A stretch of 64,000 bases of DNA from Bacillales bacterium (lineage in GTDB: Bacteria > Bacillota_I > Bacilli_A > RFN20 > CAG-449). The notes under the pieces were generated by a model that did no database searches, had not been told where the DNA came from, and was given only the letters and a program-made list of their open reading frames with translations. Positions 221 through 58,867 of this stretch are shown here, piece after piece; position 1 is the first letter of the stretch; each line of letters begins with the position of its first letter. The stretch lies in contig JAQXGN010000055.1 in the NCBI GenBank assembly GCA_029006735.1, forward strand, positions 3,239-67,238. Reading direction: 5' to 3'. The translations under genes were made by a program, and so were the position numbers.

Positions 221-253
221 TACTAAATAGATACTAAATATATACTATTTAAT
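221..253 (+). repeat. TACTA-N6 x3 array, 11-bp phased direct repeats (copy 1)
   Basis: Units read tactaaataga/tactaaatata/tactatttaat. The third unit overlaps the plsY stop codon (245-247). Same architecture as 10813-10845 and 15746-15778. Confidence 0.8.
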
Positions 254-985
254 CTTTTTATCAAAGATATGTACTGTTTTTTCTTCACCTTTCATTAATC
301 TAACAATATTGTCTTTATGACGAATAATTAAGATAATTGAAAAGAGAATTAATGAACATGAATAGATAATTTTTGATAAAGGAACACTAGCATTAGCAAT
401 ATTAAAATTCATCATCCATGGTGGTAAAAAGATTAAAGCGAACGAAGTTAAAGCGATAATACTTGAGGCTAACATTGATGATAAAGATACTTTTTTTCTT
501 AATCTTAATATAACCATAAAGACAATAAAACCAAATATTGATAATGACCAAGAACTTGCTAAACAAATTCCACCAAAACTAGATACTGCTTTTCCACCTT
601 TAAAACCATATTGGATAGGGAAACAATGACCTATGATTGCTCCAAGAGCAGATATGATAAACCCATAATCCTCTAAAGCACCATATTTAACTAAGTTTTC
701 TTCAGAAATTAAATTATGTAAAACTGGGATATATTTGATTAAAAAATAACATAATAATACTGCAATAATTGTTTTTAAACAATCCAAAATAATACATAAT
801 AAACCATATTTTTTACCATATACTCTTCCGACATTTGTTCCTCCAGCATTATGTGAACCATAATTTCTTACATCTTCATTAAAAATCTTTTTACTAATGA
901 GAATACCATTTGAAAAACTACCAAAAAAATAACCAATAATTAAACAAATTAATAATGTTAATATGATGTAGATAATCGTTGGCAT
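245..985 (-). CDS. plsY: glycerol-3-phosphate acyltransferase PlsY
   Basis: Polytopic membrane protein with the PlsY signature GSHNAGGTNVGR. The ORF-track TTG start at 1012 was trimmed to ATG 985, which is preceded by AGAGGAGGAAAG. plsY-parE-parC order matches Bacillus. Confidence 0.85.
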   Translation of the reverse strand: MPTIIYIILTLLICLIIGYFFGSFSNGILISKKIFNEDVRNYGSHNAGGTNVGRVYGKKYGLLCIILDCLKTIIAVLLCYFLIKYIPVLHNLISEENLVKYGALEDYGFIISALGAIIGHCFPIQYGFKGGKAVSSFGGICLASSWSLSIFGFIVFMVILRLRKKVSLSSMLASSIIALTSFALIFLPPWMMNFNIANASVPLSKIIYSCSLILFSIILIIRHKDNIVRLMKGEEKTVHIFDKKIK

Positions 986-1054
986 GTAATCTTTCCTCCT
1001 CTTGTAAATCAAAAATAATATTAATATATTAATATAGAATTTTAAAGTATTTTT

Positions 1055-3045: not shown

Positions 3046-5650
3046 AAAGAAAGAGATTATTCAATCTGAAGTTTATGAAGAAGAGATTATTAGTTCACCG
3101 ATTGAAGAAGTAATGTCAAATGGTTTTGGTCGTTATTCTAAGTATGTTCTTCAAGAAAGAGCAGTTCCTGATGTTAGAGATGGTTTAAAACCAGTTCAAA
3201 GAAGAATTTTATATACAATGATTCTTGAGGGTAATACTTCAAATAAACCTACTAGAAAGTGTGCTCGTACAGTTGGTGCAGTTATTGGTAGATTCCATCC
3301 TCATGGTGACACTTCAGTCTATGAAGCAATGGTTCGTTTATCTCAAGATTGGAAAATGCGTTATCCTTTAATTGATTTTCAAGGGAATAATGGGTCAATA
3401 GATGGTGATGGACCTGCTGCATATCGTTATACAGAAGCAAGATTATCAGAATTATCTGATTTAATGGTTCAAGATTTAAATAAAAATACAGTTGATATGC
3501 AACTTAACTTTGATGATCAAGAATTTGAACCTGTTGTTTTACCATGTCGATTCCCAAATATGCTTGTTAATGGAACTCAAGGTATCGCTATTGGTGCTTC
3601 TACTGATATTCCACCTCATAACTTAAGTGAAGTTATTGATGCGATTAATTATCGTATTTCCCATAAAAATTGTTCAACTGAAGATTTAATGCAATTTATT
3701 AAAGGCCCTGATTTTCCTACGGGTGGTATTATTAAAGATCAAAAATCTTTATTACAAATCTATAAAAATGGAAATGGTTCAATAAAATTATGGTGTAAAG
3801 TTGATATCGATACTTCAAATAAAGATGTTGATCAAATTATTATTCATGAAATACCATGGGGTAAAGATAAATCTGAATTAGTTAGTAATATCGATAAATG
3901 TCGTTTTGCAAATGGATTAACTGCGATATTAGAAACTCGTGATGAAACTGATAGAGACGGATTAAGAATTGTAATTGATGTTAAAAAAGGATCAGGGGCA
4001 GATAATATCTTGAATTTCTTATTATCAAAAGGTGTTTTAAGTACCACAATTAAGTTCAATTCTTTAGTTATTGATAATAATCGTCCATTAGTTGCATCAT
4101 TATTGGAAATGATTGATCGTTATATTGATCATCAAGTTGATGTTTTAACTCGAAGAAGTCAATTTGACTTAAATAAAGCAAAAAATCGTCTTCACATTGT
4201 GGAAGGCTTAATTCATGCTTGTTCTATTATTGATCAAGTTGTTCACACAATTAGACAATCTAAAGATAAACAAGATGCAAAAATTAAATTAGTTAATAAT
4301 TTTCAATTTAGTGAAGTTCAAACTGATGCTATTTTAAATTTACAATTATATCGTTTATCTAATATTGATATAGCAACACTAGAAAAAGAAGAAATCGATT
4401 TAAAAGAGACAATTAATTATTTGGAAGGTTTATTATCTTCACAAACTAAGATGAATAACTTAATCAAATCTGATTTAACAAAAGTTAAAAATCAATTTGG
4501 TGATGAAAGAAAAACATTAATTGAAGAACAAGACACATCATTTGAAGTTGATAAATTAGCATTAATCAATAAAGAAGATGTCATGGTAGCTATTACTCGA
4601 GATGGCTATATTAAGCGTAGTAACATGAAATCATATAAATCAGCGCAAGATAGTCTTCCAGGAATTAAAGTTGGAGATGCTTTCCGTGGTATTTTAAAAA
4701 CAACAACAATTGATACATTATTGTTATTCACTAATTTTGGTAACTATATAGCTGTTCCTGTTTATAAATTAATTGACAATAAATGGAAAGAAGAAGGGGC
4801 ACATATTAATGATATTTCATCCTTATCACCAAATGAAAAAATTGTTTCAGTTATCGATGTTGCTGAATATAAAAAAGGTGTTTATGTTATTTCTTTAACT
4901 AAATTAGGACAAATTAAACGTTGCCATTTATATCAATATGAAACATCAAATAGTAAAAAACCAATTAAGTGTTTTAAATTACAAGATAAAGATGAAGTTA
5001 TTGATGTCAAGGTTGGATATGGTCAATCTCGGGTCTTAATTCTATCAGATAATGGAACAACTTCTTATTATGATGAAAGTGAAATTAAACCAGTTGGATT
5101 AAAAGCAGGTGGAGTAAAAGGAATTAAACTTGATAAAGATTCTAAAGAAGTTGCTGGTTTATTGACTATTGAAGAAGATGAAAAGATTAGGTTACTTGCC
5201 TTAACTAATCATAAAGGTGTTAGAATTGTTGATGCACATAACTTAAATATGACTTATAAGTTAGGAGCTAAACAACAATTGTTTAAATCATTTAAATCTG
5301 ATCCTCAAACAGCAATCTATTTAGGTAAGATTGATAAAAAAGAAGAAAATCCATCAGTTACTGTTTTATTTGAAAATCAAGAAGTCATTAATATTGATTT
5401 AAAGGATGTGAAGAATTTACCATTTGATAACTATTTAAAGAGTAATTTAAATATTATTAATGATTTTGATATGGTCGATGTTTACGAGTTTATCGTCCCT
5501 TGTATTTCAGAAGATACAAAAGTGAAGGAACCTCTTATTAAAGAAGATGAACCTCGATTAGTTGAAGAAATATCAACTCATAAAGCTAAAGTACAAGATG
5601 AAGAAGTAAGTGTTCAATTATCTTTATTTGACTTTGTTGATGATGATTAA
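3038..5650 (+). CDS. parC: DNA topoisomerase IV subunit A, with about 60 aa of extra acidic C-terminal tail
   Basis: FGRYSKY...PDVRDGLKPVQRRILY and AAYRYTEARL (catalytic Tyr region) are present and no GyrA-box was seen. The tail ends ...VQLSLFDFVDDD. Confidence 0.85.
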   Translation: MAKKKEIIQSEVYEEEIISSPIEEVMSNGFGRYSKYVLQERAVPDVRDGLKPVQRRILYTMILEGNTSNKPTRKCARTVGAVIGRFHPHGDTSVYEAMVRLSQDWKMRYPLIDFQGNNGSIDGDGPAAYRYTEARLSELSDLMVQDLNKNTVDMQLNFDDQEFEPVVLPCRFPNMLVNGTQGIAIGASTDIPPHNLSEVIDAINYRISHKNCSTEDLMQFIKGPDFPTGGIIKDQKSLLQIYKNGNGSIKLWCKVDIDTSNKDVDQIIIHEIPWGKDKSELVSNIDKCRFANGLTAILETRDETDRDGLRIVIDVKKGSGADNILNFLLSKGVLSTTIKFNSLVIDNNRPLVASLLEMIDRYIDHQVDVLTRRSQFDLNKAKNRLHIVEGLIHACSIIDQVVHTIRQSKDKQDAKIKLVNNFQFSEVQTDAILNLQLYRLSNIDIATLEKEEIDLKETINYLEGLLSSQTKMNNLIKSDLTKVKNQFGDERKTLIEEQDTSFEVDKLALINKEDVMVAITRDGYIKRSNMKSYKSAQDSLPGIKVGDAFRGILKTTTIDTLLLFTNFGNYIAVPVYKLIDNKWKEEGAHINDISSLSPNEKIVSVIDVAEYKKGVYVISLTKLGQIKRCHLYQYETSNSKKPIKCFKLQDKDEVIDVKVGYGQSRVLILSDNGTTSYYDESEIKPVGLKAGGVKGIKLDKDSKEVAGLLTIEEDEKIRLLALTNHKGVRIVDAHNLNMTYKLGAKQQLFKSFKSDPQTAIYLGKIDKKEENPSVTVLFENQEVINIDLKDVKNLPFDNYLKSNLNIINDFDMVDVYEFIVPCISEDTKVKEPLIKEDEPRLVEEISTHKAKVQDEEVSVQLSLFDFVDDD

Positions 5651-6342
5651 TAATTATACTTTTTAAACTCAGAAAGGAGCTTTATTAAAGCTCTTTTTTC
5701 TATTCTAGATACATAACTTCGCGATATATGATACATTTTTGAAATTTCTTTTTGAGTATGTTCTACTTCGTTATTTAATCCATACCTTAAAGATATAATC
5801 TTTAGTTCACGTTCATCTAGTATTTCTAAATAACGATTTAAAGCTTTTATTTTTTGTTTCGTTTCTAATTGTTCTTCCAAAGAATCATCGATAGAAGGGT
5901 AGATATCAATTAGATGAATTTCTTGACCATCTTTATCTACACCTAATGGTTCATTTAATGAAACATTTTTTGAGTGTTTTTTATTACTTCTTAAAACCAT
6001 TAATATCTCATTTTCAATACAGCGAGCAGCATAGGTTGCTAGTTTTACGTTTTTTTCGTAAGAGAATGTATCTACTGCTTTAACTAAACCGATTGTACCA
6101 ATAGAAATTAGGTCATCTATATTTTCATCTTTTGATTCATATTTGCTTGCAATATGAGCTACTAAGCGTAAATTATGAGTTATTAGCTTGTTTCTTGCTT
6201 CATCGTGAGTCTCTTGATTAAAGAATTCTTTCATGCATTTTTCTTCTTCTTGTGGACTTAATGAAGGCGGTAAGACAGAGTTTTGAATAAAGCCTAAAAG
6301 GAAAGAGCAATTTAGTAAAGAAAGTATAAGATTTAAAAACAT
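5647..6342 (-). CDS. sigK: sporulation sigma factor K precursor (pro-sigma-K), uninterrupted
   Basis: The hydrophobic pro-sequence is followed by LRLVAHIASKY, DLISIGTIGLVKA, ATYAARCIENEILM, NVSLNEPLGVDKDGQEIHLIDI and ISRSYVSRIEKRALIKL. These segments match B. subtilis SigK better than SigE. Confidence 0.8.
   Translation of the reverse strand: MFLNLILSLLNCSFLLGFIQNSVLPPSLSPQEEEKCMKEFFNQETHDEARNKLITHNLRLVAHIASKYESKDENIDDLISIGTIGLVKAVDTFSYEKNVKLATYAARCIENEILMVLRSNKKHSKNVSLNEPLGVDKDGQEIHLIDIYPSIDDSLEEQLETKQKIKALNRYLEILDERELKIISLRYGLNNEVEHTQKEISKMYHISRSYVSRIEKRALIKLLSEFKKYNY
5675..5699 (+). terminator. rho-independent terminator of parC, embedded in the 3' coding end of convergent sigK
   Basis: Hairpin GAGCTTT-att-AAAGCTC (5677-5693) is followed by T6 (5694-5699). 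No T-run follows it on the opposite strand. Confidence 0.6.
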
Positions 6343-6987: not shown

Positions 6988-8099
6988 TGGGAAAAGTTGT
7001 ATTAAGATGCTATGGATGTGGTTGTGAACTACAAAATTCAAATCCTAATGTCACTGGATATACCCCAAAATTAATTGAAGGTAATAGTGTGATATTTTGT
7101 CAACGTTGTTTTCGTTTACAACATTATGGAATCAATAATGATGAAAATGTGTCTACTCCTAAATTTGATCAAATATTAGCTAAAGCTATTAAGAAGAAAA
7201 ATTTAATTCTTTACGTAGTTGATTTATTTAATATTGAAGGATCGATAATTAAAGAAGCTCATAAATATATCAAAGATAATCCAGTTTTAGTTTTAGCAAA
7301 TAAAAGAGATATTTTACCTAAGCTAATAGATGATAATAAATTAAGAGAATTTGTTTATCAAAGATTAAAAAGTGAAGGGGTTAAACCTTTAGATATCATT
7401 ATTGTCTCTGCATATAAAAATTATAATTTAGATGAAATCTATTTAGCATGTAGAACGTTAAGAAATAAAGGTGATATTTATATTATTGGTGCATCTAGTG
7501 TTGGTAAATCATCTTTCTTAAATTCATTTATGAAATCATATAAAAATGAAACAAGAAATGTTATTTCTACTTCACCTTATCCAGGAACGACAGTAAGTAC
7601 AATTACAATTCCAATTGATAATAAGAGCTATATTCATGATACTCCTGGGGTACTTGTCAAAGATTCTTTCTACGGATTATTAGAAAAGAGTGCAATAAAA
7701 TATGTTATTCCACGTACCGAAATTCGTCCAAAGTCATTTCAATTGAATTCTAAACAAGCTGTTTTTATTGGTGGTCTTGCTAAAATAGAAATTATTGATG
7801 GAAGTAAGTGTGGTTATACTTTCTATGTATCGAATGATGTTGAATTACATCGTTGTAAGTTAGAGAATACTAATGTTAGTTTTGATTCATTAGTATCAAG
7901 AGCAAAAATTAGACCAACAAGTGTAATTGTTAGAAGTTCAGAAGATTTAATTAGTCATGAATTTGTCCTACCAGAAGATAAATCTGTTGATATTGTTATT
8001 TCAGGCCTTGGTTGGGTTGCAACAAAAGGAAAAGGACAAAAAATTATTGTTAAAGCACCAAAAGGTATCAATGTTATTATTCGTGATAGTGAAATTTAG
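6987..8099 (+). CDS. yqeH: ribosome biogenesis GTPase YqeH
   Basis: N-terminal CxxC...CxRC zinc ribbon and a circularly permuted GTPase (NKRD ... GASSVGKS ... DTPG). Confidence 0.85.
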   Translation: MGKVVLRCYGCGCELQNSNPNVTGYTPKLIEGNSVIFCQRCFRLQHYGINNDENVSTPKFDQILAKAIKKKNLILYVVDLFNIEGSIIKEAHKYIKDNPVLVLANKRDILPKLIDDNKLREFVYQRLKSEGVKPLDIIIVSAYKNYNLDEIYLACRTLRNKGDIYIIGASSVGKSSFLNSFMKSYKNETRNVISTSPYPGTTVSTITIPIDNKSYIHDTPGVLVKDSFYGLLEKSAIKYVIPRTEIRPKSFQLNSKQAVFIGGLAKIEIIDGSKCGYTFYVSNDVELHRCKLENTNVSFDSLVSRAKIRPTSVIVRSSEDLISHEFVLPEDKSVDIVISGLGWVATKGKGQKIIVKAPKGINVIIRDSEI

Positions 8100-9848: not shown

Positions 9849-10535
9849 ATGGGGAAAATATATAGTCTTATTGTTGCAGCAATGCAAGTTGAATTTGATG
9901 CTTTAAAAAATGAACTTGATTCTTATAGAGAAATAGAAGTTCAGAATGAAAAGCTTTTAGAGTTTTCTTTAAATGGAGAATATTATTTATTAGGTTTAGG
10001 AAAAATAGGGAAAGTTAGTACGGCTTTTTTTCTTGGTAAATTATTTTCTTGCTTAACAATTAAAAGAGTTTTTAACATCGGTACTTCTGGTGGAGTAAAT
10101 TCTTCATTAAATATTTCTGATGTGATTATTGCTACTGAGGTAGGGTATTATGATGTTGATGTTATCGACTTTGGTTATCAAATGGGACAAGTTCCTGGGT
10201 TTCCTAAATATTTTACTTCTGATTTAAATTTTATAGAGTCTAAGAAGATTTCAAGTAAGTTTAATATTGTTAAAGGATTAATTCTTTCGGGTGATAATTT
10301 CGTCTCTAAGAGAGTCTATAACAAGACAATTTTAAAAGATGTAAAAGAGTGTCTTGCTTGCGAAATGGAAGCGGGAGCAGTCGCACAATGCTGTTATTCA
10401 ATGAATATTCCATTTGTAATAATTCGATCGATTTCTGATATTGTAACTAAGGATGACAACAATCTAGATTTAGATAAAAATGAGAAGAGCGTATCAACTA
10501 ATTCTGCGTTAGTATTACTCGAATTGATTAAATAA
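9849..10535 (+). CDS. mtnN: 5'-methylthioadenosine/S-adenosylhomocysteine nucleosidase
   Basis: PNP/UDP family; AAMQVEF, GTSGG, CEMEAGAVAQ and IRSISD motifs. Confidence 0.8.
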   Translation: MGKIYSLIVAAMQVEFDALKNELDSYREIEVQNEKLLEFSLNGEYYLLGLGKIGKVSTAFFLGKLFSCLTIKRVFNIGTSGGVNSSLNISDVIIATEVGYYDVDVIDFGYQMGQVPGFPKYFTSDLNFIESKKISSKFNIVKGLILSGDNFVSKRVYNKTILKDVKECLACEMEAGAVAQCCYSMNIPFVIIRSISDIVTKDDNNLDLDKNEKSVSTNSALVLLELIK

Positions 10536-10581: not shown

Positions 10582-10669
10582 AATTGTCTAAAATTGTCAG
10601 GTAATAGGGGATTTATACACATTTAGACATTATTTTCTTATAAATTTCCTAAAATTGTCTTTTTATATT

Positions 10670-10697
10670 ACTTCGCATAATACTCATTATGTAAACT
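10670..10697. other. dif: dif chromosome-dimer resolution site (XerC arm ACTTCGCATAA, spacer TACTCA, XerD arm TTATGTAAACT)
   Basis: 22/28 identity to the B. subtilis dif sequence as I recall it (ACTTCCTAGAATATATATTATGTAAACT), with the XerD arm 11/11. CGCATAA also matches the E. coli dif left arm. It lies in the convergent gap between the + and - strand gene runs, with xerD 1.4 kb away. Confidence 0.8.
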
Positions 10698-10812
10698 AAA
10701 TATATAATAAAATGCGATATTTCGACATTTTATATTAATAATTATTAATGTATCAAATAGATATTAGTATAGTTATCCACAATTATTTAAATATTATTTT
10801 TATTAAATTATC

Positions 10813-10845
10813 TACTATATAAATACTAAATATCTACTAAATGCG
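10813..10845 (+). repeat. TACTA-N6 x3 array, 11-bp phased direct repeats (copy 2)
   Basis: Units read tactatataaa/tactaaatatc/tactaaatgcg. The array is 116 bp from dif and lies beyond the deoB terminator. Confidence 0.8.
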
Positions 10846-10855
10846 ATAATAATAT

Positions 10856-10902: not shown

Positions 10903-12093
10903 TTAGTTTAATACTTCTTTAAATGGTTCTCCAATTTGATTTTCTTTCTTTAAATCAAAGTTTGTAATGATTGTCGCACCTATATCTGCAAATGTATTAT
11001 GTTCGTTAAGCTTTCTTCCATCTTTAATTGATTTCGAATAAATTATTAATGGGACTTTTTCACGTGTATGATCTGATCCCTCCCAAGTTGGATCATTTCC
11101 ATGATCTGCAGTTATCATTAATAAATCATCTTCATTAAGTAAAGGAAGAAGTTCACCTAACTTTATATCAAACTCTTCAATCGCTTTACCATAACCAATT
11201 GGATCTCGACGATGACCATATTCAGAATCAAATTCAACTAAGTTTACAAAACATAAACCTTTCCAAGAATTATCTAATGCTTCTAATATAGTCTTATTCA
11301 TTCCATCTAAATTAGATATTGTCTTTTGGGTTTTAGTAACTCCAACCCCATTAAATATATCTGATATTTTCCCAATACAAGACACAGTATAATTATTATC
11401 TTGTAAAATATTCATATATGTTCTTCCGCTTGGTGATAAAGCTAAATCATGTCTATTTGGTGTTCTTTTAAAGTTAGTTGGATTAGTTCCGATAAATGGT
11501 CTAGCGATAATTCTACCTAAATAATATTCAGGTCTTAGGCATATTTCTCTAGCGATATCACAATAATGATATAATTCTGGAACTGGAATTATATCTTCAT
11601 TCGCTGCAATTTGTAAAACTGAATCTGCACTTGTATAAACGATTAAGTCACCTGTTTTTAGTTGATGTTCTCCCCATTTTTTTATAATTTCTGTTCCACT
11701 AGCAGCACAATTACCAACTATTTTTCTTCCACATCTATCTTCTAATTCTTTGATTAATGCTTCAGGGAAACCGGATTCTGTAAATGTTTTAAATGGTTTA
11801 GTTGTATAAATACCCATCATTTCCCAATGTCCAGTCATTGTATCTTTACCATTAGATAGTTCATTACATTTTAAAACATAACTACTTTTATGTTCTACTT
11901 TATTAGTTCCAATGATATCATCTAAATCCCCTATACCTAATTTATTTAAATTTGGTATTTTTAAGCCATTACACGATTGAGAAATATGAACAAAGGTATT
12001 TGTTCCTTTATCATTGAATTTATCAGAATCTGCCATTTCTCCAATTCCTAATGAATCACATACTATTAGAAATATTCTTTTATATTTTTTCAT
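10903..12093 (-). CDS. deoB: phosphopentomutase
   Basis: [19 protein letters not shown]..., [16 protein letters not shown] and GSDHTRE metal-site motifs. Confidence 0.9.
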
Positions 12094-12135: not shown

Positions 12136-13011
12136 TTAATTCATGTACTTATCATATGCAGATAGTATTCTTTTTGTTGATACATGGGTATAGATTTGTG
12201 TAGTAGTTATTTTACTATGGCCTAACATTTGTTGGACCATGATTAATTCTGCCCCACATTCTAATAAATGTGTTGCAAAACTATGTCGCAATGTATGAGG
12301 TGATATCTCATCTTTAATACCTGCCATTTCAGCATATTTTTTTACTTGTTTCCAAAAGAATTGACGAGTAAGTACTTCTCCATGATGATTTAAGAATAAA
12401 TAATCACTCTTTTTATTTACATTTTTATTCCTAACTTCTTTAATATATTTATTTAAATATTCTAATGCAAACTCTCCAATTGGTATTATGCGATCTTTAT
12501 TGCCTTTTCCTTGAACTACTTTTATACAATTTAATGAAGTAGAAAAAGAAGATAACTTTAGATTTAATAACTCACTTACACGTAATCCACAAGAATACAT
12601 AACTTCTAACATTGCTCTATCTCTAATACCAATATCTTTAGATAGATCAGGTTGCTCAAATAAAGATTCTATATCTTCTATAGATAAAACAGAAGGCAAA
12701 TGTTTACCTATTTTTGGGGTTTCAATTGTTTTAGCTTCAATTTTTAGAATATTTTCTCTAGTTAAAAATGTATAAAATGATTTAATTGTAATTGCTCTTC
12801 TACTAATTGTTGATGAACTTTTACCTTCATTTCCTAAATATACGATGTATTTCTTGATATCTAGATAATCTAATTGATCAGTATCTTCTTTTTTTAAAAA
12901 ACGAAAAAACAACTCTAAATCTTCTTTATAATTATTATAAGTTTGATTAGATAATCCTTTTTCTACTAATATATATTCTAAAAATCTATCTATTGCATCA
13001 TCTATTCTCAT
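12136..13011 (-). CDS. xerD: site-specific tyrosine recombinase XerD
   Basis: GLRVSEL, GKGNKDRIIP, LTRQFFWKQVKKYA, PHTLRHSFATHLL and LGHSKITTTQIYTH are present. The xerD-deoB order matches Bacillus and the gene is adjacent to dif. Confidence 0.85.
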   Translation of the reverse strand: MRIDDAIDRFLEYILVEKGLSNQTYNNYKEDLELFFRFLKKEDTDQLDYLDIKKYIVYLGNEGKSSSTISRRAITIKSFYTFLTRENILKIEAKTIETPKIGKHLPSVLSIEDIESLFEQPDLSKDIGIRDRAMLEVMYSCGLRVSELLNLKLSSFSTSLNCIKVVQGKGNKDRIIPIGEFALEYLNKYIKEVRNKNVNKKSDYLFLNHHGEVLTRQFFWKQVKKYAEMAGIKDEISPHTLRHSFATHLLECGAELIMVQQMLGHSKITTTQIYTHVSTKRILSAYDKYMN

Positions 13012-13016
13012 TTATT

Positions 13017-14186
13017 TTATTCCTTTTTTAATTTACTCGCGGGAATGAGCATTTCTTTATTCATCTTATTATTGATTTGATTGATAATAATCCTGGTTTT
13101 GCACTCTTCTTGATGTTTTGAAAGATTGAAGAAGTTGGTTTGTTCTTGATAATCTTCTCTATTTGTAAGGTTAGATAAAGTAACTCCAATTAAACGTATT
13201 AACTTCCCTTCAAAGTATTCATTATATAATTCTAAAGCACATTTATAGATATCTTCAAATTTATTAGTTGCATAATCTATTGTTTTTCCTTTTGAAAAAC
13301 TTTTAAATTCAGAATTTTTAATGATTAGCGTAATCTTTTTACCGATTTTATTTTGTTTAGTTGCATCTTTAGAGACACCTTGAGATAAAACATAAATCAT
13401 TTGTTTAATTTCTTCATAATCAGCCGTATCAAATAAAAAAGTTGATGAATGTCCAACTGATTTTGGATCCCATTGTTCAACGATTACTTCATCACATCCT
13501 TTTCCATAAACCCAATCTTTGAATTGTTGATAGTTTACACCTAATAATTTTTTAAGTTCTTTAGATTCATTTAAAGCAAAATCTCTAATTGTATGAATTC
13601 CTAATTCTTTTAATTTAGGAGCAGTTTTTTTCCCTATGCCATACATATCTTCTATTTTAATAGGCCACAATATTTTTTTAATATCTTTTCGTCTAATAAT
13701 AGTAATACCCATTGGTTTTTTTATATCTGATGCCATTTTTGCTAAAAATTTAGTTGGAGCTAAGCCGATAGAACATAATAATTTTGTTTCTTTATATAAA
13801 TTATCTTGGAGTTCTTTAAGAAATTGTTCAGGAGAAGAACAATTTTTCATACATTCTGTCATATCTGCATAACATTCATCAATAGAAGCGATTTCTATAA
13901 TATTAGTATATCTTTTTATATATGAAAAAAAATCTTGGCTTAATCGATGATATAATTCAAAATCAGATGAGCGAATAATTACTTCCGGACATAATCTTCT
14001 TGCCATATATGTCGGCATAGCAGATTTGATTCCATATTTCCTAGCCTCATAACTGGCAGTTGAAACGATACCTCTTCTAGTAGTACCAGCAATAATTAAT
14101 GGTTTACCAATTAAGGAAGGATCTTTAATGGTTTCTGCGGTTGCAAAAAAAGCATTTAAATCAATATGCATAATGATTTTCGCCAT
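13017..14186 (-). CDS. dinB: DNA polymerase IV (Y-family)
   Basis: IMHIDLNAFFA, SIDECY and GIGKKTAPKL motifs; SD AGGAGG upstream. Confidence 0.85.
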   Translation of the reverse strand: MAKIIMHIDLNAFFATAETIKDPSLIGKPLIIAGTTRRGIVSTASYEARKYGIKSAMPTYMARRLCPEVIIRSSDFELYHRLSQDFFSYIKRYTNIIEIASIDECYADMTECMKNCSSPEQFLKELQDNLYKETKLLCSIGLAPTKFLAKMASDIKKPMGITIIRRKDIKKILWPIKIEDMYGIGKKTAPKLKELGIHTIRDFALNESKELKKLLGVNYQQFKDWVYGKGCDEVIVEQWDPKSVGHSSTFLFDTADYEEIKQMIYVLSQGVSKDATKQNKIGKKITLIIKNSEFKSFSKGKTIDYATNKFEDIYKCALELYNEYFEGKLIRLIGVTLSNLTNREDYQEQTNFFNLSKHQEECKTRIIINQINNKMNKEMLIPASKLKKE

Positions 14187-15699: not shown

Positions 15700-15735
15700 G
15701 AAAGAAATAAAAAAAGAGAAATTTTTTTCTCTTTT
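15700..15735 (-). terminator. terminator downstream of the glycosyltransferase-like gene
   Basis: AAAAGAGAA-loop-TTCTCTTTT hairpin (15712-15735), followed on the - strand by a T-rich tract. The stem is AT-rich. Confidence 0.55.
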
Positions 15736-15745
15736 ACAAATTATT

Positions 15746-15778
15746 TACTAATTTATTACTAAATATATACTAAACAAT
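15746..15778 (+). repeat. TACTA-N6 x3 array, 11-bp phased direct repeats (copy 3)
   Basis: Units read tactaatttat/tactaaatata/tactaaacaat. The array lies between the stop of gene 15789-17225 and its terminator. Confidence 0.8.
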
Positions 15779-15788
15779 AAATTTTTGC

Positions 15789-17225
15789 TTATTTTCCTTT
15801 TACTGCAAGCTTGACGACTTCATATCCACCATCATAGTAATGGGTTTTTTTCAAAGCGATGATTCTATTATTTAATTCAATTAAAATTCTAGAATCATTT
15901 ATTAATAAGTCAATCATATTATTTAATTCTTTTTTTGTTTTACATTCATAAGTAGAATCACCAATCTCTTGAGCGTAATAAGCTCCATACTTCTCATGGC
16001 CACCGATATGTTTGTTAAATATCTTTGGAATTGGATAGAAACTTAATTCACTTGGTTTTGTAATTAAGATATCGGATTTACGCATTAATAAATTAGTTGA
16101 ATATACTGCTTCAAAAATATTTTCATTATATATCGCATATATACCTTTAAAATCATCATTACTAATTATTTCTTTTAATTTACTATATTCGTTAAATAAT
16201 AAGGTTGAATTCTCTTCAATAGAAGGAATATGTTTTTTAATATAGTTCCAAACTTTTAAATGATCTCCAAAATTAATAAATACTATAACTTTACCTTTTT
16301 TTACTAATGGAAGAAGATGATTTAATGTTTCTAAATACATCTTTTCACCTGCACCTGCTCCTCCAACTGTTAATAATATACGTAAAGGTTGTTTATTATT
16401 AATTCGATTAATTCTTTCCTGACAATCTTTTTCTACATTAGAAACTAATTCATGGTCGATATAATGACCAACTTGAAATAGTTCATTATCTGGAATGCCT
16501 TTTAATGTTCTTTTTTTATCAAAGCCATTTAAAGATTTATAACCTAAATACGCATATGGGGTTTGTACAGTATGAATTGCTCCTTCAGAAAGATGTAAGG
16601 CCATTGGCCAATTATCTGGGATTGCATTTACAACATGGGTTAAAGAAGCATGAACTGCTCCTTGGCTTGGCCAAACATGAGTTGCAATGAAAGGTATATC
16701 TTTAGGAAATTCTTGATATAAAGGAGTTAATAATTCCGTATTTTTTTGATCGCAAGCATTATATGTTAATTTTTTAAAGCCTTCTGAATTTAAATATTCC
16801 CAATATTTATTAAAAAGAATTGATCTTTGTGATAATTTTGACCCTAATGAATATAAATCATTTTGTGATTTAATAAATTTAGATCCAGTTGATTCTTTAA
16901 AACTAGAAACATCAAACCAATAAGGAACATACCCTAATGCTTTCGCACATGAACAAATAGCTAAAGAGATACGATAATGACCAAATCCCATACGAATATT
17001 CCCAATCACTACGCCTCGAGAATCAAATTCACATTTTTGGTCACCAATTACGAGGTTTTTAATACCTAGTTCATCAATCTCTTTAATTGGTTCAGTTTTA
17101 AAATGATAAGTAACATTTGAATCATCAGAAAACTTTTTAATGAATTTCGCTTTTGATTTTAGGGCTTTTTTATATGTTTTATTATCAATTTTATTGCCGA
17201 ATATATATTTTGATTTATCTTCCAT
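15789..17225 (-). CDS. putative GT-B glycosyltransferase (MGDG synthase/UgtP/MurG-like) with a novel N-terminal region
   Basis: By eye, LRILLTVGGAGAGEK... and SDILITKPSELSFYPIPKI...GHEKYGA resemble the UgtP C-terminal half (AGAHG..., CMITKPGGITLTEA...GQEKENA). The N-terminal GFGHYR resembles the GNGH motif. Confidence 0.45.
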   Translation of the reverse strand: MEDKSKYIFGNKIDNKTYKKALKSKAKFIKKFSDDSNVTYHFKTEPIKEIDELGIKNLVIGDQKCEFDSRGVVIGNIRMGFGHYRISLAICSCAKALGYVPYWFDVSSFKESTGSKFIKSQNDLYSLGSKLSQRSILFNKYWEYLNSEGFKKLTYNACDQKNTELLTPLYQEFPKDIPFIATHVWPSQGAVHASLTHVVNAIPDNWPMALHLSEGAIHTVQTPYAYLGYKSLNGFDKKRTLKGIPDNELFQVGHYIDHELVSNVEKDCQERINRINNKQPLRILLTVGGAGAGEKMYLETLNHLLPLVKKGKVIVFINFGDHLKVWNYIKKHIPSIEENSTLLFNEYSKLKEIISNDDFKGIYAIYNENIFEAVYSTNLLMRKSDILITKPSELSFYPIPKIFNKHIGGHEKYGAYYAQEIGDSTYECKTKKELNNMIDLLINDSRILIELNNRIIALKKTHYYDGGYEVVKLAVKGK

Positions 17226-33311: not shown

Positions 33312-33520
33312 AAAAAAAGTACCTCTAAGGGTGCTTCTGCACGGTACCACCTTAGTTCACTAAATCAAGTGCACTTTAATAGTTATAACGGAACAACCGG
33401 ATAAACTACTTAATTTCATTTATCTGTCTCCATAGTGTCAAATAATTTATCTATATAAATCTTTTCACCAAACGATTCTCTCTAAAATAATCAATAAATT
33501 ATCCTCTACTTCAACGACAA
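33312..33520 (-). promoter_or_regulatory. T-box leader of hisS-aspS (specifier loop contains GACAC)
   Basis: On the - strand: GAAGUAGAGG, AGAGAG, GGUGAAAA, loop UUUGACACUA (33439-33435), T-box AACUAAGGUGGUACCGUG, then a hairpin and long U tracts before the SD. Confidence 0.8.
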
Positions 33521-33524
33521 GTTT

Positions 33525-38957: not shown

Positions 38958-39824
38958 ATGAAAGTAACATTAAGTCAAAGCATCGGTTATTGTGATGGAA
39001 TTAAATTCACCCTAGAAAATATTAATAAAATTTATAAATCTAATTCTAAAAAAAGGATTCATGTTTTTGGTCATATCGCTCATAATAAAAAAATAATTGA
39101 TTCGCTTAATGAACTTCATTTAGATATTGTAGAAGACTATACAAGATTTAAAAGATTAGTTAAAAAATATGATAAAGATTTAGATATAGTTATATTTGCT
39201 ACTAATGGTATCGATTGTGAAATTGAAACATACTTAAAAGAACAAAAAATTAAATATTATGATTTAACTTGCCCTATTATAAAAAATATGCTTAAGGAAA
39301 TTAAATCGACCTTAAAGAAAAAAATACCAGTTGCTTATTTAGGTAAACAGAATAATCAAACTACAAAAGCAGTTTTATCTTTATCCACTGATATTAAATT
39401 CATTAATATCAATAATCCAAAAGATGAATTAGTTAGTTTAAAAGAAGGGACATATCTTTTCTCTCAAAAATCTAATTCTCAATATGATATATCCCGTATT
39501 ATTGCTAATCTAAAAGAAAAGCAACCGCTTATCCATCTTTGTCATACCCCATGTCAAAAAACAATTGACTTAGAGGATTCATGGTATGAAGTTACTTCAC
39601 AAGAATATTTAATTACTTTAGGAAGTATAAAATCTTCTACTGTCAAAGAAATATTTGAATTATCTCAATCTTTATATCCAGATAGACAACATTTAATATT
39701 TGAAACACTTGAAGAAATTAAAGCATTTGAATTCAATAATCAAAAAAAGATTTTCTTAAATGCTGGTCCAAGTTATTCTCTTGAACAAGTTGAAGAGATT
39801 GTCACTTATCTTCAATCATTATAA
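38958..39824 (+). CDS. divergent IspH/LytB homologue (cluster Cys retained, catalytic residues replaced)
   Basis: By-eye alignment to E. coli and B. subtilis IspH gives: GYCDG (Cys12), IAHN (His41), LTCP (Cys96) and LCHTPCQ (Cys197 region). SAHG is replaced by ATNG, and GHPE by NNQT (39351-39362). Confidence 0.6.
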   Translation: MKVTLSQSIGYCDGIKFTLENINKIYKSNSKKRIHVFGHIAHNKKIIDSLNELHLDIVEDYTRFKRLVKKYDKDLDIVIFATNGIDCEIETYLKEQKIKYYDLTCPIIKNMLKEIKSTLKKKIPVAYLGKQNNQTTKAVLSLSTDIKFININNPKDELVSLKEGTYLFSQKSNSQYDISRIIANLKEKQPLIHLCHTPCQKTIDLEDSWYEVTSQEYLITLGSIKSSTVKEIFELSQSLYPDRQHLIFETLEEIKAFEFNNQKKIFLNAGPSYSLEQVEEIVTYLQSL

Positions 39825-40243
39825 AAATCATCAAGGCAATCAATTTTTAATTCGTAGATATCACTTATCTTAATCTGTTTACGATTTTCTAATATGATTA
39901 CCTTTTTTTGTTGATCATATTTTTTTAAAACTCCTTTTTCAAGATTATAATGGCCTAATGAATCATCTTTTTCTAAGACAAAATATATGATTTTTATTTC
40001 GTTTCTATCCTTTAGATGATTCAATAAATAGTTGATTTTATTAGAAATTAATTCTTTTTCTTCATTGTTTAATTCTTTTTTTCTTTCATAGTATATCCCT
40101 TTTTCTTCAATCGATTCTTCATATCCAGTAAGTGCAGCAAATGGTGCGAATTGACTCGCCCTATCTAATAAAGACATCTTCTTATGATTTTTAGATTCAT
40201 GATGAGGCAAAGAGATTATTTTTTCATATTTAGAATCTATCAT
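39812..40243 (-). CDS. YolD-like protein (accessory to the Y-family polymerase)
   Basis: RASQFAPFAALTGYEE motif. The gene overlaps the upstream polymerase gene by 4 nt, as in the B. subtilis uvrX-yolD and yqjW-yqzH pairs. Confidence 0.65.
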   Translation of the reverse strand: MIDSKYEKIISLPHHESKNHKKMSLLDRASQFAPFAALTGYEESIEEKGIYYERKKELNNEEKELISNKINYLLNHLKDRNEIKIIYFVLEKDDSLGHYNLEKGVLKKYDQQKKVIILENRKQIKISDIYELKIDCLDDFYND

Positions 40244-41757
40244 GCTTTATGGCCTCCAATTTGTTCATTTCGATCTTTACCGGTTGATTTTTCAAAAAAA
40301 TTTGTCCCTTTTAAGATTGAATTTTTACCATATTTTTTCTTAATGGATAAAATAGTTTCCTGCGCTTTTTTCTCTTTTTCTTGGGCTTTTTTATCATTCT
40401 TTTTTCTTTTTTCAAGTGCTTCTTGATCAACAAATAGAGACATCTGAAAATAAGAAGAAGAGACAACATCATTTTCATTTATTACGTTACTAGCAACGAC
40501 ATTAACTCGTCTAATTTTTAAATTAGGATTAACTATTTTTTCATATAGAGCACTTGCATAGCGAGTTAAAAGAGTACTTGAAGAAGTATACTCTTCAAAA
40601 TTTACATGACCTTGAGCAGGTTTTGGAACATTCTTTCCATAAAAATCTTTAGCGATTTGTCCTTTATATGATTTTTTAACCTCTTGATCTAATAAAGATT
40701 GACTATCATATCCTATATAAATACCAATCGCATTTGTCATTAATTTTTTCTCCACTAAAGATAAAGCTAAATTATCAATCATTTCTTTTAAAACAATTAA
40801 TCCATCATCATATGAATATGGTTCTAGTAAAACTTGACCAATACTTAAAGAAGAATTATCTGGTTTGTATGATTTAATATCACTCATTCGACAAGGTTCA
40901 TATCCCCAAGCGTGATCGATTAATAATTCAGCATTAATACCAAATTCTTTATAAAGTAAATCTTCATTATAATAATCATCATTTTTGCCTACTGAACATA
41001 AAGCAATATCGCCCATTGTATATAAACCTAATCGATTTAAACGTTCTTGATATCCTCTTCCGACTCGCCAAAAATCAGTTAAAGGAGTATGAGACCAAAG
41101 CTTTTCTTTATAACTTTTTTCATCTAATGATGCAATTCTAACCCCATCTTGATCAGGTGGAATATGTTTTGCCACAATATCCATCGATACTTTAGCTAAA
41201 TACATATTTGTTCCTATCCCGGCTGTAGCGGTAATACCGGTATTATCTAAAACATCTTTAATCATTGTTCTAGCTAATTCATAGCCAGTCATATTCAAGG
41301 CTTTTAAATATTTAGTCGCATCAATGAATACTTCATCAATTGAATAAACATGAATATCATCTTTCCCGATGTATTTTAAGTATATTTCATAGATTTTCGA
41401 ACTAATTTCAATATATTTTGCCATTCGAGGTTTGGCGATAATAAATGATATTTCATAATCCGAATTATTTTCAAGTTCCAGACTATTTGTTGATTTTTTA
41501 CTAAATTGATGTTTTTTATTTTCTTTTAATCTATTTGAATTGATCTTCTTTACTGTTTGATTAACCTCAAATAAACGAGGTCTACCTGATATTCCTAAGG
41601 CTTTTAAACTTGGTGAAACTGCTAAACATATCGTTTTTTCTGTTCGAGATGAATCAGCAACAACTAAGTTTGTAGTTAATGGATTTAAGTTCCGATCGAC
41701 ACATTCTACTGATGCATAAAATGATTTTAAATCGATACATATGAATACATTTTCCAT
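40240..41757 (-). CDS. Y-family DNA polymerase (UmuC/UvrX/YqjW-like)
   Basis: ICIDLKSFYASVE, SIDEVFID and a little-finger region, with the clamp motif QMSLF near the C-terminus. The start is set at ATG 41757, which follows AGGTGGTG. Confidence 0.8.
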   Translation of the reverse strand: MENVFICIDLKSFYASVECVDRNLNPLTTNLVVADSSRTEKTICLAVSPSLKALGISGRPRLFEVNQTVKKINSNRLKENKKHQFSKKSTNSLELENNSDYEISFIIAKPRMAKYIEISSKIYEIYLKYIGKDDIHVYSIDEVFIDATKYLKALNMTGYELARTMIKDVLDNTGITATAGIGTNMYLAKVSMDIVAKHIPPDQDGVRIASLDEKSYKEKLWSHTPLTDFWRVGRGYQERLNRLGLYTMGDIALCSVGKNDDYYNEDLLYKEFGINAELLIDHAWGYEPCRMSDIKSYKPDNSSLSIGQVLLEPYSYDDGLIVLKEMIDNLALSLVEKKLMTNAIGIYIGYDSQSLLDQEVKKSYKGQIAKDFYGKNVPKPAQGHVNFEEYTSSSTLLTRYASALYEKIVNPNLKIRRVNVVASNVINENDVVSSSYFQMSLFVDQEALEKRKKNDKKAQEKEKKAQETILSIKKKYGKNSILKGTNFFEKSTGKDRNEQIGGHKA

Positions 41758-41837
41758 TAAAATCACCACCTATATTTATTTTACCATATCTTAAAATTGT
41801 GATTAATATTGTTTTATAAAAATTTGATTTTAATATC

Positions 41838-54215: not shown

Positions 54216-54368
54216 TCACTATTTCCTCCTGTATATCAATTTTATTATTTAAATAATAATCTTTCAACTAATATTTATGCAAAAGAAAAATAGTAATCAT
54301 TTTATTCTTTAATTTTTATCAATTTTATACTAATATATATTCGTACCAAATGAATAATAGGTGAAGAT

Positions 54369-56727: not shown

Positions 56728-56946
56728 CATTTTAAGCGTTGATAAAGACATGCTTATTAGAAATTACTAGAGATTGATTCATTTGGTGAAAGAATCATAC
56801 AACCTAATAAGAACTACTTTGGAGCTTACTTGGAAACAAGTCGTTCATCGCGTTAAGATGTCAATGAAGCGTATATTAATTATTAATATAAATTAAGGTG
56901 GTACCGCGTTTAAAGTTCAAGCGTCCTTATATTATGGACGCTTTTT
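56728..56946 (+). promoter_or_regulatory. T-box leader of thrS (Thr specifier, probably ACU at 56813-56815)
   Basis: AGAGA, GGUGAAA, helix CUUAUUAG/CUAAUAAG followed by AACUA (a Thr codon plus trailing A), T-box AAUUAAGGUGGUACCGCG (56892-56909), and terminator GCGTCC-9 nt-GGACGC followed by T5 (56921-56946). Confidence 0.85.
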
Positions 56947-56965: not shown

Positions 56966-58867
56966 ATGAAAATAACATGTTTAGATGGTAAATCAATCGA
57001 ATTTAATCAAGGTGAATCTGGATTAGATATTGCAAAAAAGATTTCCTTATCATTGGCTAAAGAATCTGTTGCATATAAATTAAATGGTCATATATATGAC
57101 TTAAATCGCCCACTTTGTGAAGAAGGAGAATTTGTTTTAATTAAGCAAGGAGAAAAAGATAGTTATGACGTATTAAATCACTCAACTTCTCATTTACTTG
57201 CTCAAGCAATTCAAAAACTATATCCAGGTGCTAAATTTGGTTTTGGTCCAAGTATTGAAGAAGGTTTCTATTATGATATCGACTTCCCTACACCAATAAC
57301 TGATGCAGATTTTGCAAAAATCGAAAAAGAAATGAAAAAATGTGCAGAAGGTGGATACCCTATTGTTAGACAAGAAGTATCTAAAGAAGAAGCTTTAGAA
57401 ATCTTTAAAGATAACCCATACAAAGTTGAATTAATTAATGGTATTGAAGGAACTATTTCTCTATATCGACAAGGTGATTTTGTTGATTTGTGTGCAGGAC
57501 CTCACTTGAGTAAAACATCACAAATTAAACATTTCAAATTATTATCTCTTGCAGGTGCTTATTGGAGAGGTGACATCCATAATAAACAATTAACAAGAAT
57601 TTATGGTACATCTTGGTGGAGCAAAGATGAATTAGATACTCATTTAAATAATCTTGAAGAAAGAAAGAAAAGAGATCATCGTAAATTAGGTAAAGAATTA
57701 AATCTATTTATGTTATCCGAATTTGGTCCTGGTCTACCTTTCTGGTTACCAAAAGGTTACACATTAAGAAGAACATTAGAAGATTTCTGGTTAAGAATAC
57801 ATCGTGAAAGAGGATATGAAGTCATCAATACTCCAATCATGCTAAATCGTCAATTATGGGAAACTTCTGGACACTGGGATCATTATAAAGATGATATGTT
57901 TGTTGTCAATGTTGAAGATGGTACATATGCGATAAAACCAATGAACTGTCCAGGTGCAATTTTAGTTTATAATAATTCACTGCACTCATATAGAGAATTA
58001 CCATTAAGATATGCAGAACTAGGTAATGTCCATCGTTATGAAGCTTCTGGATCTTTAAATGGATTATTTAGAGTAAGAGGATTTACTCAAGATGATGCTC
58101 ATATTTTATTAATGGAAAGTCAAGTTGGCGATGAAGTATCTCGTATTATTTCTTTATATGATTATGTTTACTCTGTGTTTGGTTTAAATTATTCAATTGA
58201 ATTATCAACTAGACCAGAAAGTAACTTTATAGGTGAAATATCAACTTGGGATCATGCAGAAGAAGCATTAAAACAAGCATGTTTGAAAACTGGGCATGAA
58301 TTTAAGATTAACCCAGGAGATGGTGCTTTCTATGGACCTAAACTCGATTTCAAATTAAAAGATTCTATGAATAGAATTTGGCAATGTGGTACAGTTCAAC
58401 TTGATATGCAACTTCCAGGAAGATTTAATTGTACATATATCGCTGAAGATGGTTCAAAGAAGACACCAGTTATGATTCATCGTGCTTGCTTTGGTTCATT
58501 AGAAAGATTCATTGGTATCATTATTGAAAACTTTGCTGGTCAATTCCCTACTTGGTTAGCACCAGTTCAAGTTAATATACTTCCAGTTGCTGATGTTCAT
58601 TTAGATTATGCCTTAAAACTTAAAGAAGAATTTATTAAATATGGTTTAAGAGTAAATATCGATAATTCTTCAGAAAAACTAGGATATAGATTAAGACAAT
58701 CCTCTATTCAAAAAACTCCTTATACTCTTGTAGTTGGCGACAAAGAAGTCGAAAATAATGGTGTTACATATCGAGTTATTGGTCACCAAGAACAAATCTA
58801 TGTTTCTAAAGAAGAATTCTTAAAACTTATTAATGATGAAATTAGTTCATTATCATTAAGAAAATAA
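56966..58867 (+). CDS. thrS: threonyl-tRNA synthetase
   Basis: TGS N-terminus, editing-domain HSTSHLLA, class II core (FRVRGFTQDDAH), and an anticodon-binding C-terminus. Confidence 0.95.
   Translation: MKITCLDGKSIEFNQGESGLDIAKKISLSLAKESVAYKLNGHIYDLNRPLCEEGEFVLIKQGEKDSYDVLNHSTSHLLAQAIQKLYPGAKFGFGPSIEEGFYYDIDFPTPITDADFAKIEKEMKKCAEGGYPIVRQEVSKEEALEIFKDNPYKVELINGIEGTISLYRQGDFVDLCAGPHLSKTSQIKHFKLLSLAGAYWRGDIHNKQLTRIYGTSWWSKDELDTHLNNLEERKKRDHRKLGKELNLFMLSEFGPGLPFWLPKGYTLRRTLEDFWLRIHRERGYEVINTPIMLNRQLWETSGHWDHYKDDMFVVNVEDGTYAIKPMNCPGAILVYNNSLHSYRELPLRYAELGNVHRYEASGSLNGLFRVRGFTQDDAHILLMESQVGDEVSRIISLYDYVYSVFGLNYSIELSTRPESNFIGEISTWDHAEEALKQACLKTGHEFKINPGDGAFYGPKLDFKLKDSMNRIWQCGTVQLDMQLPGRFNCTYIAEDGSKKTPVMIHRACFGSLERFIGIIIENFAGQFPTWLAPVQVNILPVADVHLDYALKLKEEFIKYGLRVNIDNSSEKLGYRLRQSSIQKTPYTLVVGDKEVENNGVTYRVIGHQEQIYVSKEEFLKLINDEISSLSLRK

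Follow-up and report, generated by a model that had tools for sequence, protein, structure and literature searches.

The DNA analyzed here, a stretch of 64,000 nucleotides referred to as the window, comes from a metagenome-assembled genome (MAG) of a sporulating member of the Bacillales (assembly GCA_029006735.1, contig JAQXGN010000055.1, positions 3,239 to 67,238), the sporulation genes spo0A, spoIVB, and sigK being encoded in it. It carries three copies of an array of TACTA-N6 units iterated at 11-bp steps, the second of which (array 2) is flanked by the converging genes mtnN and deoB and stands beside the dif site. GC skew is positive up to ~10 kb and negative thereafter, the cumulative skew reaches its maximum at 10.25 to 10.75 kb, and the directions of the genes converge on this peak; the 10.25- to 10.75-kb region is the replication terminus. 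The dif site, located at the peak in the same intergenic region, has the 28-bp layout and an TTATGTAAACT arm, coincides with the skew switch, is present as a single copy per locus, and has a Xer recombinase gene, xerD, 1.4 kb away. By analogy with the dif site of Bacillus subtilis, we take TTATGTAAACT to be the XerD arm. It is this arm that faces array 2.

A search for exact matches to TACTA-N6-TACTA-N6-TACTA returned three positions in the window (221, 10813, and 15746), all on the + strand, and the letters at 221-253, 10813-10845, and 15746-15778 are those read in the preliminary description of this DNA, including the 16-mer TACTAAATATATACTA common to copies 1 and 3. The pattern was absent from 100 dinucleotide-preserving shuffles. 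The base composition guessed by eye in that description was approximately right (GC content of the window, 27.4%), and its expectation of about 1e-8 matches per position becomes, by arithmetic, ~1.3e-8 per site or ~0.002 per window. Allowing two mismatches added nothing except a fourth in-phase unit to copy 3 (TACAA, at 15735). With a position weight matrix (PWM) derived from 124 array units, the three loci scored 27 to 31 bits and everything else in the window less than 14 bits, and shuffled sequences gave 0 or 1 hit. The 8-mer TACTAAAT on its own was not enriched in the window (13 occurrences observed versus 9 expected), indicating that the signal is the phased array rather than the word.

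All three copies are intergenic, as claimed. The TAG stop codon of plsY falls inside the last unit of array 1, and array 3 is flanked by two minus-strand genes, with the start of a MATE transporter gene on one side and the stop of a DUF6937/6938 gene on the other. The arrays lie either before or after weak terminator hairpins. No Rfam family was found at the arrays, and RNA folding at these positions was not significant (z = +0.06 to −1.7), which supports the earlier suggestion that the element acts as DNA rather than as RNA. An open reading frame (ORF) or a promoter was ruled out as the identity of array 2, since the only ORF of the 367-bp intergenic region containing dif encodes 24 aa and promoter-like matches were at or below the expectation from shuffles.

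Loci of relatives, gathered by mtnN alignment and exact-protein look-ups, revealed the same arrays at syntenic sites in ~18 related MAGs of uncultured gut Bacilli, with MtnN identity down to 39%; these relatives include Ca. Scatoplasma merdavium and a genome (L008) whose locus has a GC content of 48%. An array is present at the plsY 3′ end in 11 relatives, and equivalents of array 3 are found on the + strand at +4.6 to +5.1 kb from dif in L003, L004, L006, and L008. Across 15 dif-containing loci, every one of 44 arrays is intergenic. The consensus of the 124 units is TACTAAWTAWN, with three or four 11-bp units arranged head to tail. The first four positions are nearly invariant (T1 in 119 units, A2 in 123, C3 in 123, and T4 in 120; 96 to 99%), A5 and A6 are conserved in ~80% of the units, and the remaining positions are merely biased toward A/T. 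Changes at position 1 are mostly T to A, giving AACTA, and one of them is a polymorphism between near-identical strains. A conserved core combined with free spacers reads as the signature of a selected binding site and not of recent tandem duplication. The original observation is confirmed, and it is far stronger than the preliminary description knew. The (TACTA-N6)x3-4 matches listed for viral contigs (L083 to L303, from phages and giant viruses) were mostly perfect 11-bp tandem repeats of unrelated units, such as TACTAAATAAA x4 and TACTAACGATA x4. Since TACTA-containing tandem repeats are common in viruses, the bare pattern is not specific.

Copy 2 belongs to a composite module that flanks dif on the XerD-arm side, an association missed by the preliminary description: the array is locked in distance and helical phase both to dif and to a DnaA box. 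In the window, array 2 starts 143 bp past the start of dif and 40 bp past the start of TTATCCACA, a perfect 9-mer match to the DnaA box consensus TTATNCACA, predicted from its sequence and fixed position to be a DnaA box. The first 442 kb of clade DNA searched contained 10 perfect boxes, every one located at +89 to +113 from the start of dif and 9 sharing the strand of the box in the window, and three further loci (L305, L307, and L078) added perfect boxes at +99 to +114. Alignment anchored on dif placed TACTA units at +142, +153, and +164 (±2) in the set formed by the window, L003, L004, L005, L008, L010, L011, L013, L208, L210, L305, L307, and L078; the unit at +153 ± 2 was found in 13 of 14 genomes, and the equivalents of array 2 in relatives begin at +131 to +143. 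In total, the module (a box at +99 to +114 with TACTA at +142, +153, and +164) was detected in 14 to 16 of 18 genomes and reaches as far as L305, L307, and Ca. Scatoplasma.

The sequence separating dif from the box displays a pairwise identity of 39%, versus 34% expected from composition, and dif itself an identity of 86% across the clade. Box positions form two classes ~11 bp apart (101 to 103 and 112 to 114), and the distance from box to array is 29 or 40 bp, indicating that helical phase is kept at 11 bp per turn. Selection acts on distance and phase but not on the sequence of the spacer. The distance of array 2 to dif is fixed, whereas its distance to the deoB stop codon varies from −9 to 109 bp. 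Genes for lipoproteins and ABC transporters are inserted between the dif-linked array and deoB in L208 (19612-20769), L209 (19863-20882), L210 (20832-21827), and L307 (10983-12771). These insertions indicate that the array stays with dif and not with deoB. In six relatives, an additional, inverted array is located between mtnN and dif, at a distance that varies from 95 to 354 bp.

The arrays are confined to the neighborhood of dif (about −17 to +10 kb) in this clade of uncultured sporulating gut Bacilli. The 44 arrays of the 15 dif-containing loci span −17.3 to +9.7 kb, so that the clustering near dif proposed from the window alone holds strongly in relatives. Dif-centered clade DNA (~224 kb) contained 37 arrays, and ~158 kb of clade DNA located farther from dif contained none, the sampling extending to ~60 kb from dif. 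In particular, the PWM scan found no array at 16 to 64 kb of the window, and there was none in four thrS-centered loci of relatives (88 kb in total), including L204, which is from the same species as L012 and lies ~37 kb from dif. In L207 (ENA ERZ27245999, k119_273356), the closest relative by ParE (82% identity), plsY-parE-parC is not beside dif; no array was found in this locus, not even behind plsY, where its presence is otherwise constant, nor any dif or DnaA box. There, plsY-parE-parC is followed by a C39 peptidase gene, leuS, and tex, in what looks like a terminus-proximal rearrangement. The mtnN loci of other taxa (1.2 Mb, including Borreliella with a GC content of 28%) yielded two arrays only, both in MAGs at the edge of the clade and immediately beside mtnN. 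Because the distant loci, L207, and the other taxa are nearly free of arrays, we conclude that the arrays track proximity to dif rather than gene identity or AT-richness.

Table 1. Coordinates of the arrays, of the sites around dif, and of neighboring genes in the 64-kb window
Feature	Position	Strand	Sequence and remarks
Array 1	221..253	+	TACTAAATAGA TACTAAATATA TACTATTTAAT; plsY 3′ end; 10.4 kb left of dif
plsY	245..1012	−	
sigK	5647..6342	−	4.3 kb from dif
mtnN	9849..10535	+	
Possible DnaA-box variant	10613..10621	+	TTATACACA, fits TTATNCACA; one mismatch; 57 bp left of dif
dif	10670..10697	+	ACTTCGCATAATACTCATTATGTAAACT = ACTTCGCATAA-TACTCA-TTATGTAAACT; 28 bp (11+6+11)
DnaA box, perfect	10773..10781	+	TTATCCACA; 103 bp after dif start, 40 bp before array 2
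Array 2	10813..10845	+	TACTATATAAA TACTAAATATC TACTAAATGCG; dif-linked copy
deoB	10903..12093	−	
xerD	12136..13011	−	TIGR02225 XerD, 340 bits, above cut-off; tyrosine recombinase acting at dif
DinB/Pol IV gene	13017..14186	−	Y-family polymerase
Array 3	15735..15778	+	Four in-phase units, TACAAATTATT TACTAATTTAT TACTAAATATA TACTAAACAAT; 5.1 kb right of dif
DUF6937+DUF6938 gene	15789..17225	−	478 aa
T-box leader	33324..33523	−	
YolD-like small ORF	39812..40243	−	
UmuC-like IMS protein gene	40240..41769	−	Y-family
T-box leader	56730..56931	+	Upstream of thrS
thrS	56966..58867		

Several further features of the dif region were recorded. The one-mismatch variant TTATACACA on the left of dif is 1 of 16 such matches in the window, a number at the chance level, and might at most represent a second box; two DnaA boxes are found in L305, L008, and L011. 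Scanning metagenomes with a dif plus DnaA-box pattern gave one match in the JGI metagenomes, which hardly sample the clade. This match, L304 (Ga0157372_10014137, 6960-7080, minus strand), is an unrelated contig of 33% GC with a dif-like TCTTCGAATAATCATTCATTATGTACAT, TTATCCACA at about +111, and no TACTA array, which could reflect either chance or a wider link between dif and the DnaA box. Between the mtnN terminator and dif, the motif CTAAAATTGTC occurs twice (10585-10597 and 10649-10659) and AATTGTC once; ATTGTC-like words are found at the same place in L004, and these may form a further binding site on the XerC side of dif. The 10-mer AAATGCGATA is present exactly at 10710-10719, 13 bp after dif, and at 10839-10848, after array 2, the 24 bp preceding each copy being 79% alike. 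It contains ATGCGA, the core of the complement of the XerC arm, and the array of L003 is followed by ATGCG; the feature is not more widely conserved. A mobile element that integrates by means of Xer (IMEX) or a duplicated dif was ruled out, as there is one dif per locus and the likeness between dif flank and array tail (AAATGCGATA) is specific to the window.

Among the genes of the window, sigK is intact, without a skin-like interruption, and oriented head-on to replication; it sits between parC and yqeG, a position kept in L208 to L210, L305, and L307. The DinB/Pol IV gene adjoins xerD, and a second Y-family gene, encoding a UmuC-like protein, is preceded by the small YolD-like ORF. The DUF6937+DUF6938 gene lies between array 3 and spo0A and is not at that position in L003, L305, or L307. 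The two T-box leaders agree with an origin of the DNA in the Bacillota.

The orientation of the arrays bears on what they might do. Of the 23 arrays to the right of dif, 22 lie on the + strand, and all of those beside mtnN are on the − strand; at the plsY 3′ end (−10 kb), the orientation is + in most genomes, − in one, and paired in three. A rule based on the chromosome arm fits 35 of the 44 arrays, and a rule placing TAGTA on the sense strand just after a stop codon fits 33 of 42. Since transcription and replication go in the same direction, these rules are confounded with each other, and neither is decisive. The preliminary description had proposed a Ter-like system, of which the link to the terminus and the action at the DNA level have stood and the polar fork trap has not. 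In such a system, a terminator protein bound to each array would halt forks arriving from one direction and confine termination to the dif region. Like the sites of the RTP-Ter system of B. subtilis, the arrays are cis-acting and cluster near dif and the terminus in a chromosome of the Bacillota. The terminus restriction of the arrays and the predominance of the + strand to the right of dif agree with this proposal, as does the inverted pair (− ... dif ... +) that brackets a short interval in six relatives, recalling TerI/TerII; TACTAAAT also resembles the TACYAAAT core of the RTP B site, and a winged-helix protein is plausible as the binder here. However, two imperfect inverted repeats, A and B, make up the bipartite Ter site of ~30 bp, which is occupied by two RTP dimers, whereas the arrays consist of three or four direct 11-bp repeats, and Ter is not known to keep a set spacing from dif or a DnaA box, such a distance and phase relationship not being expected of it. 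The Ter consensus (ACTAANWNNWCTATGTACYAAAT core) matches no array at up to three mismatches; its sole three-mismatch match in the window, at 54329, is at the chance level (23 of 100 shuffles). A fork trap has two opposed groups of sites, which forks can enter but not leave; in the window, the orientation does not flip across the terminus, all three arrays being on the + strand on both sides of dif. In L013, the arrays at −10.4, +0.14, and +7.3 kb are on the + strand and the one at −0.14 kb is on the − strand, and the combination of a + plsY array with a − mtnN array at −0.1 kb, shared with L208, implies that both forks would be blocked before meeting, whichever the polarity, leaving the dif interval or 10 kb unreplicated. 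These orientations exclude a strict polar fork trap. The gene for RTP often adjoins a Ter site; a tblastn search with RTP (query validated against PDB 1BM9) that covered ~390 kb from the clade, and hence a small portion of each genome, returned nothing below E = 1, which is weak evidence. An RTP-type Ter site is ruled out by the direct repeats, the consensus mismatch, and the logic of orientation, and we regard Ter-like polar barriers in general as quite unlikely. A rather improbable alternative is that bound arrays act as transcription roadblocks or insulators, stopping RNA polymerase much as TTF-I and Reb1 sites do in eukaryotes and protecting dif and converging genes where forks merge. At least one flanking gene has its 3′ end toward the array in 42 of 44 cases, the stop codon is often part of the array, the orientation agrees with that expected from the adjoining gene in 33 of 42 cases, including the + arrays behind the head-on plsY that break the arm rule, and the positions before or after weak terminator hairpins fit as well. 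Against this stand the ~45 other gene ends at 16 to 64 kb of the window and all gene ends of the thrS loci, which are devoid of arrays, the loss of the plsY array where plsY is away from dif (L207), and the attachment of array 2 to dif at a variable distance from the deoB stop (−9 to 109 bp). In addition, the paired plsY arrays of L004, L008, and L208 are in the order opposite to that predicted, and three arrays are nearest to recN 5′ ends. Comparably improbable is a function as a traffic signal for motors, whether for unloading or stalling of SMC-ScpAB, as with XerD/XDS and MatP/matS, or as a stop sign for SpoIIIE/FtsK at dif. The distribution is terminus restricted and roughly mirror-symmetric about dif (35 of 44 by the arm rule), the arrays are close to xerD and dif, and SpoIIIE-type translocation must end at the terminus in an organism that sporulates. 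The array is nevertheless unlike a XerD half-site, TTATGTAAACT being present in the window only at dif, it shows no similarity to the known matS and KOPS/SRS motifs, and the plsY arrays break the symmetry; furthermore, this explanation overlaps the one that we favor and differs from it only in the downstream effect. A precedent exists in B. subtilis, in which XerD-dependent SMC unloading at the terminus is established, according to work cited in PMC12322038.

Direct repeats spaced by 10 to 11 bp, placed on or against the −35 region of the promoters under control, are typical of response regulators of the OmpR family, and the arrays could be operators of an OmpR/PhoB-type transcription factor whose small regulon lies near the terminus by chance; some arrays do lie upstream of gene starts, at distances of 6 to 95 bp (the MATE gene of the window and recN in L003, L004, and L013). 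Most of them, in contrast, lie between convergent genes or at 3′ ends without a promoter to control, and the 42 of 44 arrays with a gene 3′ end on at least one side are usually nearer to such an end. The flanking genes (plsY, mtnN, deoB, xerD, MATE, the spo0A neighbor, and recN) are functionally unrelated, arrays follow dif proximity and not gene identity (L207), promoter-like matches are at the chance level, and the phase lock to dif and the DnaA box is left unexplained, making such an operator very unlikely. The juxtaposition of a perfect DnaA box with three AT-rich repeats located 29 or 40 bp further in 14 genomes, and the two boxes in L305, L008, and L011, recall an origin: at oriC, a strong DnaA box nucleates an oligomer along 11-bp-phased sites, and in Escherichia coli three AT-rich 13-mer direct repeats stand beside box R1. 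The repeats would then form a DNA unwinding element, and the module would serve DnaA titration or helicase loading at the terminus. Unlike in oriC-type assemblies, the TACTA units are neither degenerate DnaA boxes nor contiguous DnaA-trios, the same arrays also stand at 5 to 17 kb with no DnaA box beside them, the skew and the directions of the genes identify a terminus and not an origin, and no reason is given for the phase lock to dif. We consider an origin-like module highly improbable. Finally, the arrays could be curved or flexible DNA, or decayed 11-bp tandem repeats devoid of function. DNA in which AAAT tracts and TA steps recur in 11-bp phase should be curved, and perfect 11-bp TACTA tandem repeats are common among the viral contig matches listed. 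Curvature would not, however, hold T-A-C-T invariant while the A/T tail varies, recent tandem duplication predicts identical spacers, the opposite of what is seen, and position and phase are kept across genomes in which spacers have diverged to random. A protein-independent origin of the pattern is therefore extremely unlikely.

The 11-bp phasing puts TACTA on one face of the helix, an arrangement that would suit cooperative, head-to-tail binding by a small helix-turn-helix or winged-helix protein. Three candidates encoded nearby, SigK, Spo0A, and XerD, were rejected, as none of their known motifs resembles TACTAAAT and the XerD half-site is present only at dif. The best lead is a Rok-like nucleoid protein or a functional analogue of it, because the alternation of TACTA and AACTA and the adjacent DnaA box fit what is known of Rok. 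In Rok of B. subtilis, the winged helix makes minor-groove contacts over ~5 bp, with TACTA and AACTA as top-ranked 5-mers (PMC6212790), and the protein oligomerizes, bridges DNA, clusters near ori and ter, and colocalizes with DnaA (PMC11841835). Both 5-mers are present here, TACTA being nearly invariant in the units and AACTA their only frequent position-1 variant. Unlike the putative binder of the arrays, Rok associates with extended AT-rich, horizontally acquired regions and is not known to use short phased arrays at fixed sites. "Rok-like specificity" describes how the site works, not membership in a family. Depletion of TACTA as a signature of Rok was uninformative, since observed-to-expected ratios of 0.50 to 0.55 in the window and the clade were equaled by the Borreliella control (0.55).

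Together, these observations lead us to favor, tentatively and at somewhat less than an even chance, the explanation that each copy is a member of a conserved family of phased binding arrays for an oligomerizing protein, one of which forms a module with dif and DnaA while the satellites mark the terminus. The units, with their nearly invariant T1-A2-C3-T4 and free spacer, would display an identical recognition patch along a single face of the helix, and a sequence-specific protein able to oligomerize would coat each array head to tail. Beside dif, the resulting filament and DnaA on its box would form a fixed nucleoprotein complex at the XerD half-site, which could control or shield Xer recombination or the traffic of translocases or SMC at dif; in model systems, FtsK-type activators act from this XerD side. 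The satellites, located 5 to 17 kb away at the 3′ ends of genes, may provide additional loading or bridging sites that mark or fold a terminus domain of ~25 kb. The proposed system would not be a polar fork trap.

The closest analogues are the accessory sequences of plasmid Xer sites (cer/psi), the repeats of the TnpI IRS, MatP/matS, and XerD/XDS, none of which is homologous to the arrays. Sites that flank a Xer core unilaterally and keep a constant distance and phase to it are found in the dif module as in cer/psi, where a tyrosine recombinase core is flanked on one side by accessory sites for PepA, ArgR, and ArcA that build a defined synaptic architecture. The TnpI IRS of Tn4430 reportedly likewise has one-sided accessory repeats (DR1-DR2) by the recombinase core, but it is a transposon site whose repeats are bound by the recombinase itself. 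cer and psi are plasmid sites with their accessory DNA on the XerC side, and their resolution does not depend on FtsK. The dif module differs from both in being chromosomal, in lying on the XerD side, in combining a DnaA box with TACTA repeats, and in having repeats also kilobases away. MatP-matS and XerD-XDS share with the arrays sequence-specific, terminus-confined sites that organize the terminus or control SMC. However, matS, a 13-bp palindrome spread over ~800 kb (versus a domain of only ~25 kb here), and XDS, which resemble XerD half-sites, are not phased direct-repeat arrays and are not locked to dif and a DnaA box.

Several points weigh against the explanation that we favor. We infer the binder and all of its functions from sequence. 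Known Xer accessory sequences are on the XerC side, plasmid borne, and bound by other proteins. The inverted arrays between mtnN and dif, missing from the window, vary in their distance from dif (95 to 354 bp). A tblastn search for a Rok homologue (query validated against PDB 5ZUZ) in the same ~390 kb, and so in a small portion of each genome, gave no significant match, the best one (L010, E = 0.38) being a lipoprotein; no Rok is known outside the B. subtilis group and the plasmids of that group, the protein binds AT-rich DNA broadly, and the depletion of TACTA in the window does not exceed that of the Borreliella control. In the window and in the dif-adjacent regions of relatives, the small unannotated ORFs close to arrays encode lipoproteins or proteins that do not look DNA binding. 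The terminus-only distribution is established out to ~60 kb from dif and hence for a small portion of each genome. Since orientation fits the arm (35 of 44) and the gene 3′ end (33 of 42) alike, a transcription-related role is also conceivable.

A more specific version, which we judge unlikely, is that DnaA and an oligomer on the TACTA array, held in fixed register on the XerD side, form an accessory or licensing complex for the resolution of chromosome dimers, with the satellites bridging a micro-domain of ~25 kb. If true, this would couple dimer resolution to replication or to the status of DnaA, or would replace or gate activation by FtsK/SpoIIIE. Chromosomal dif sites are considered FtsK dependent and are not known to require accessory DNA, and our literature searches yielded no chromosomal dif described as having a direct-repeat array and a DnaA box locked to it in phase. 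We also know of almost nothing on how termini are marked beyond E. coli (Tus/Ter and MatP/matS) and the B. subtilis group (RTP/Ter and XerD/XDS). The clade described here keeps an array, a perfect DnaA box, and dif in spacing and phase while the spacers diverge to randomness, which suggests that the resolution of chromosome dimers might be linked, in a testable way, to the initiator DnaA and offers a precise cis-element for fishing out a new DNA-binding protein associated with dif or the terminus. Even if the function were modest, such as that of a landing pad for a nucleoid protein, the arrays are of practical use in finding the terminus of these MAGs.

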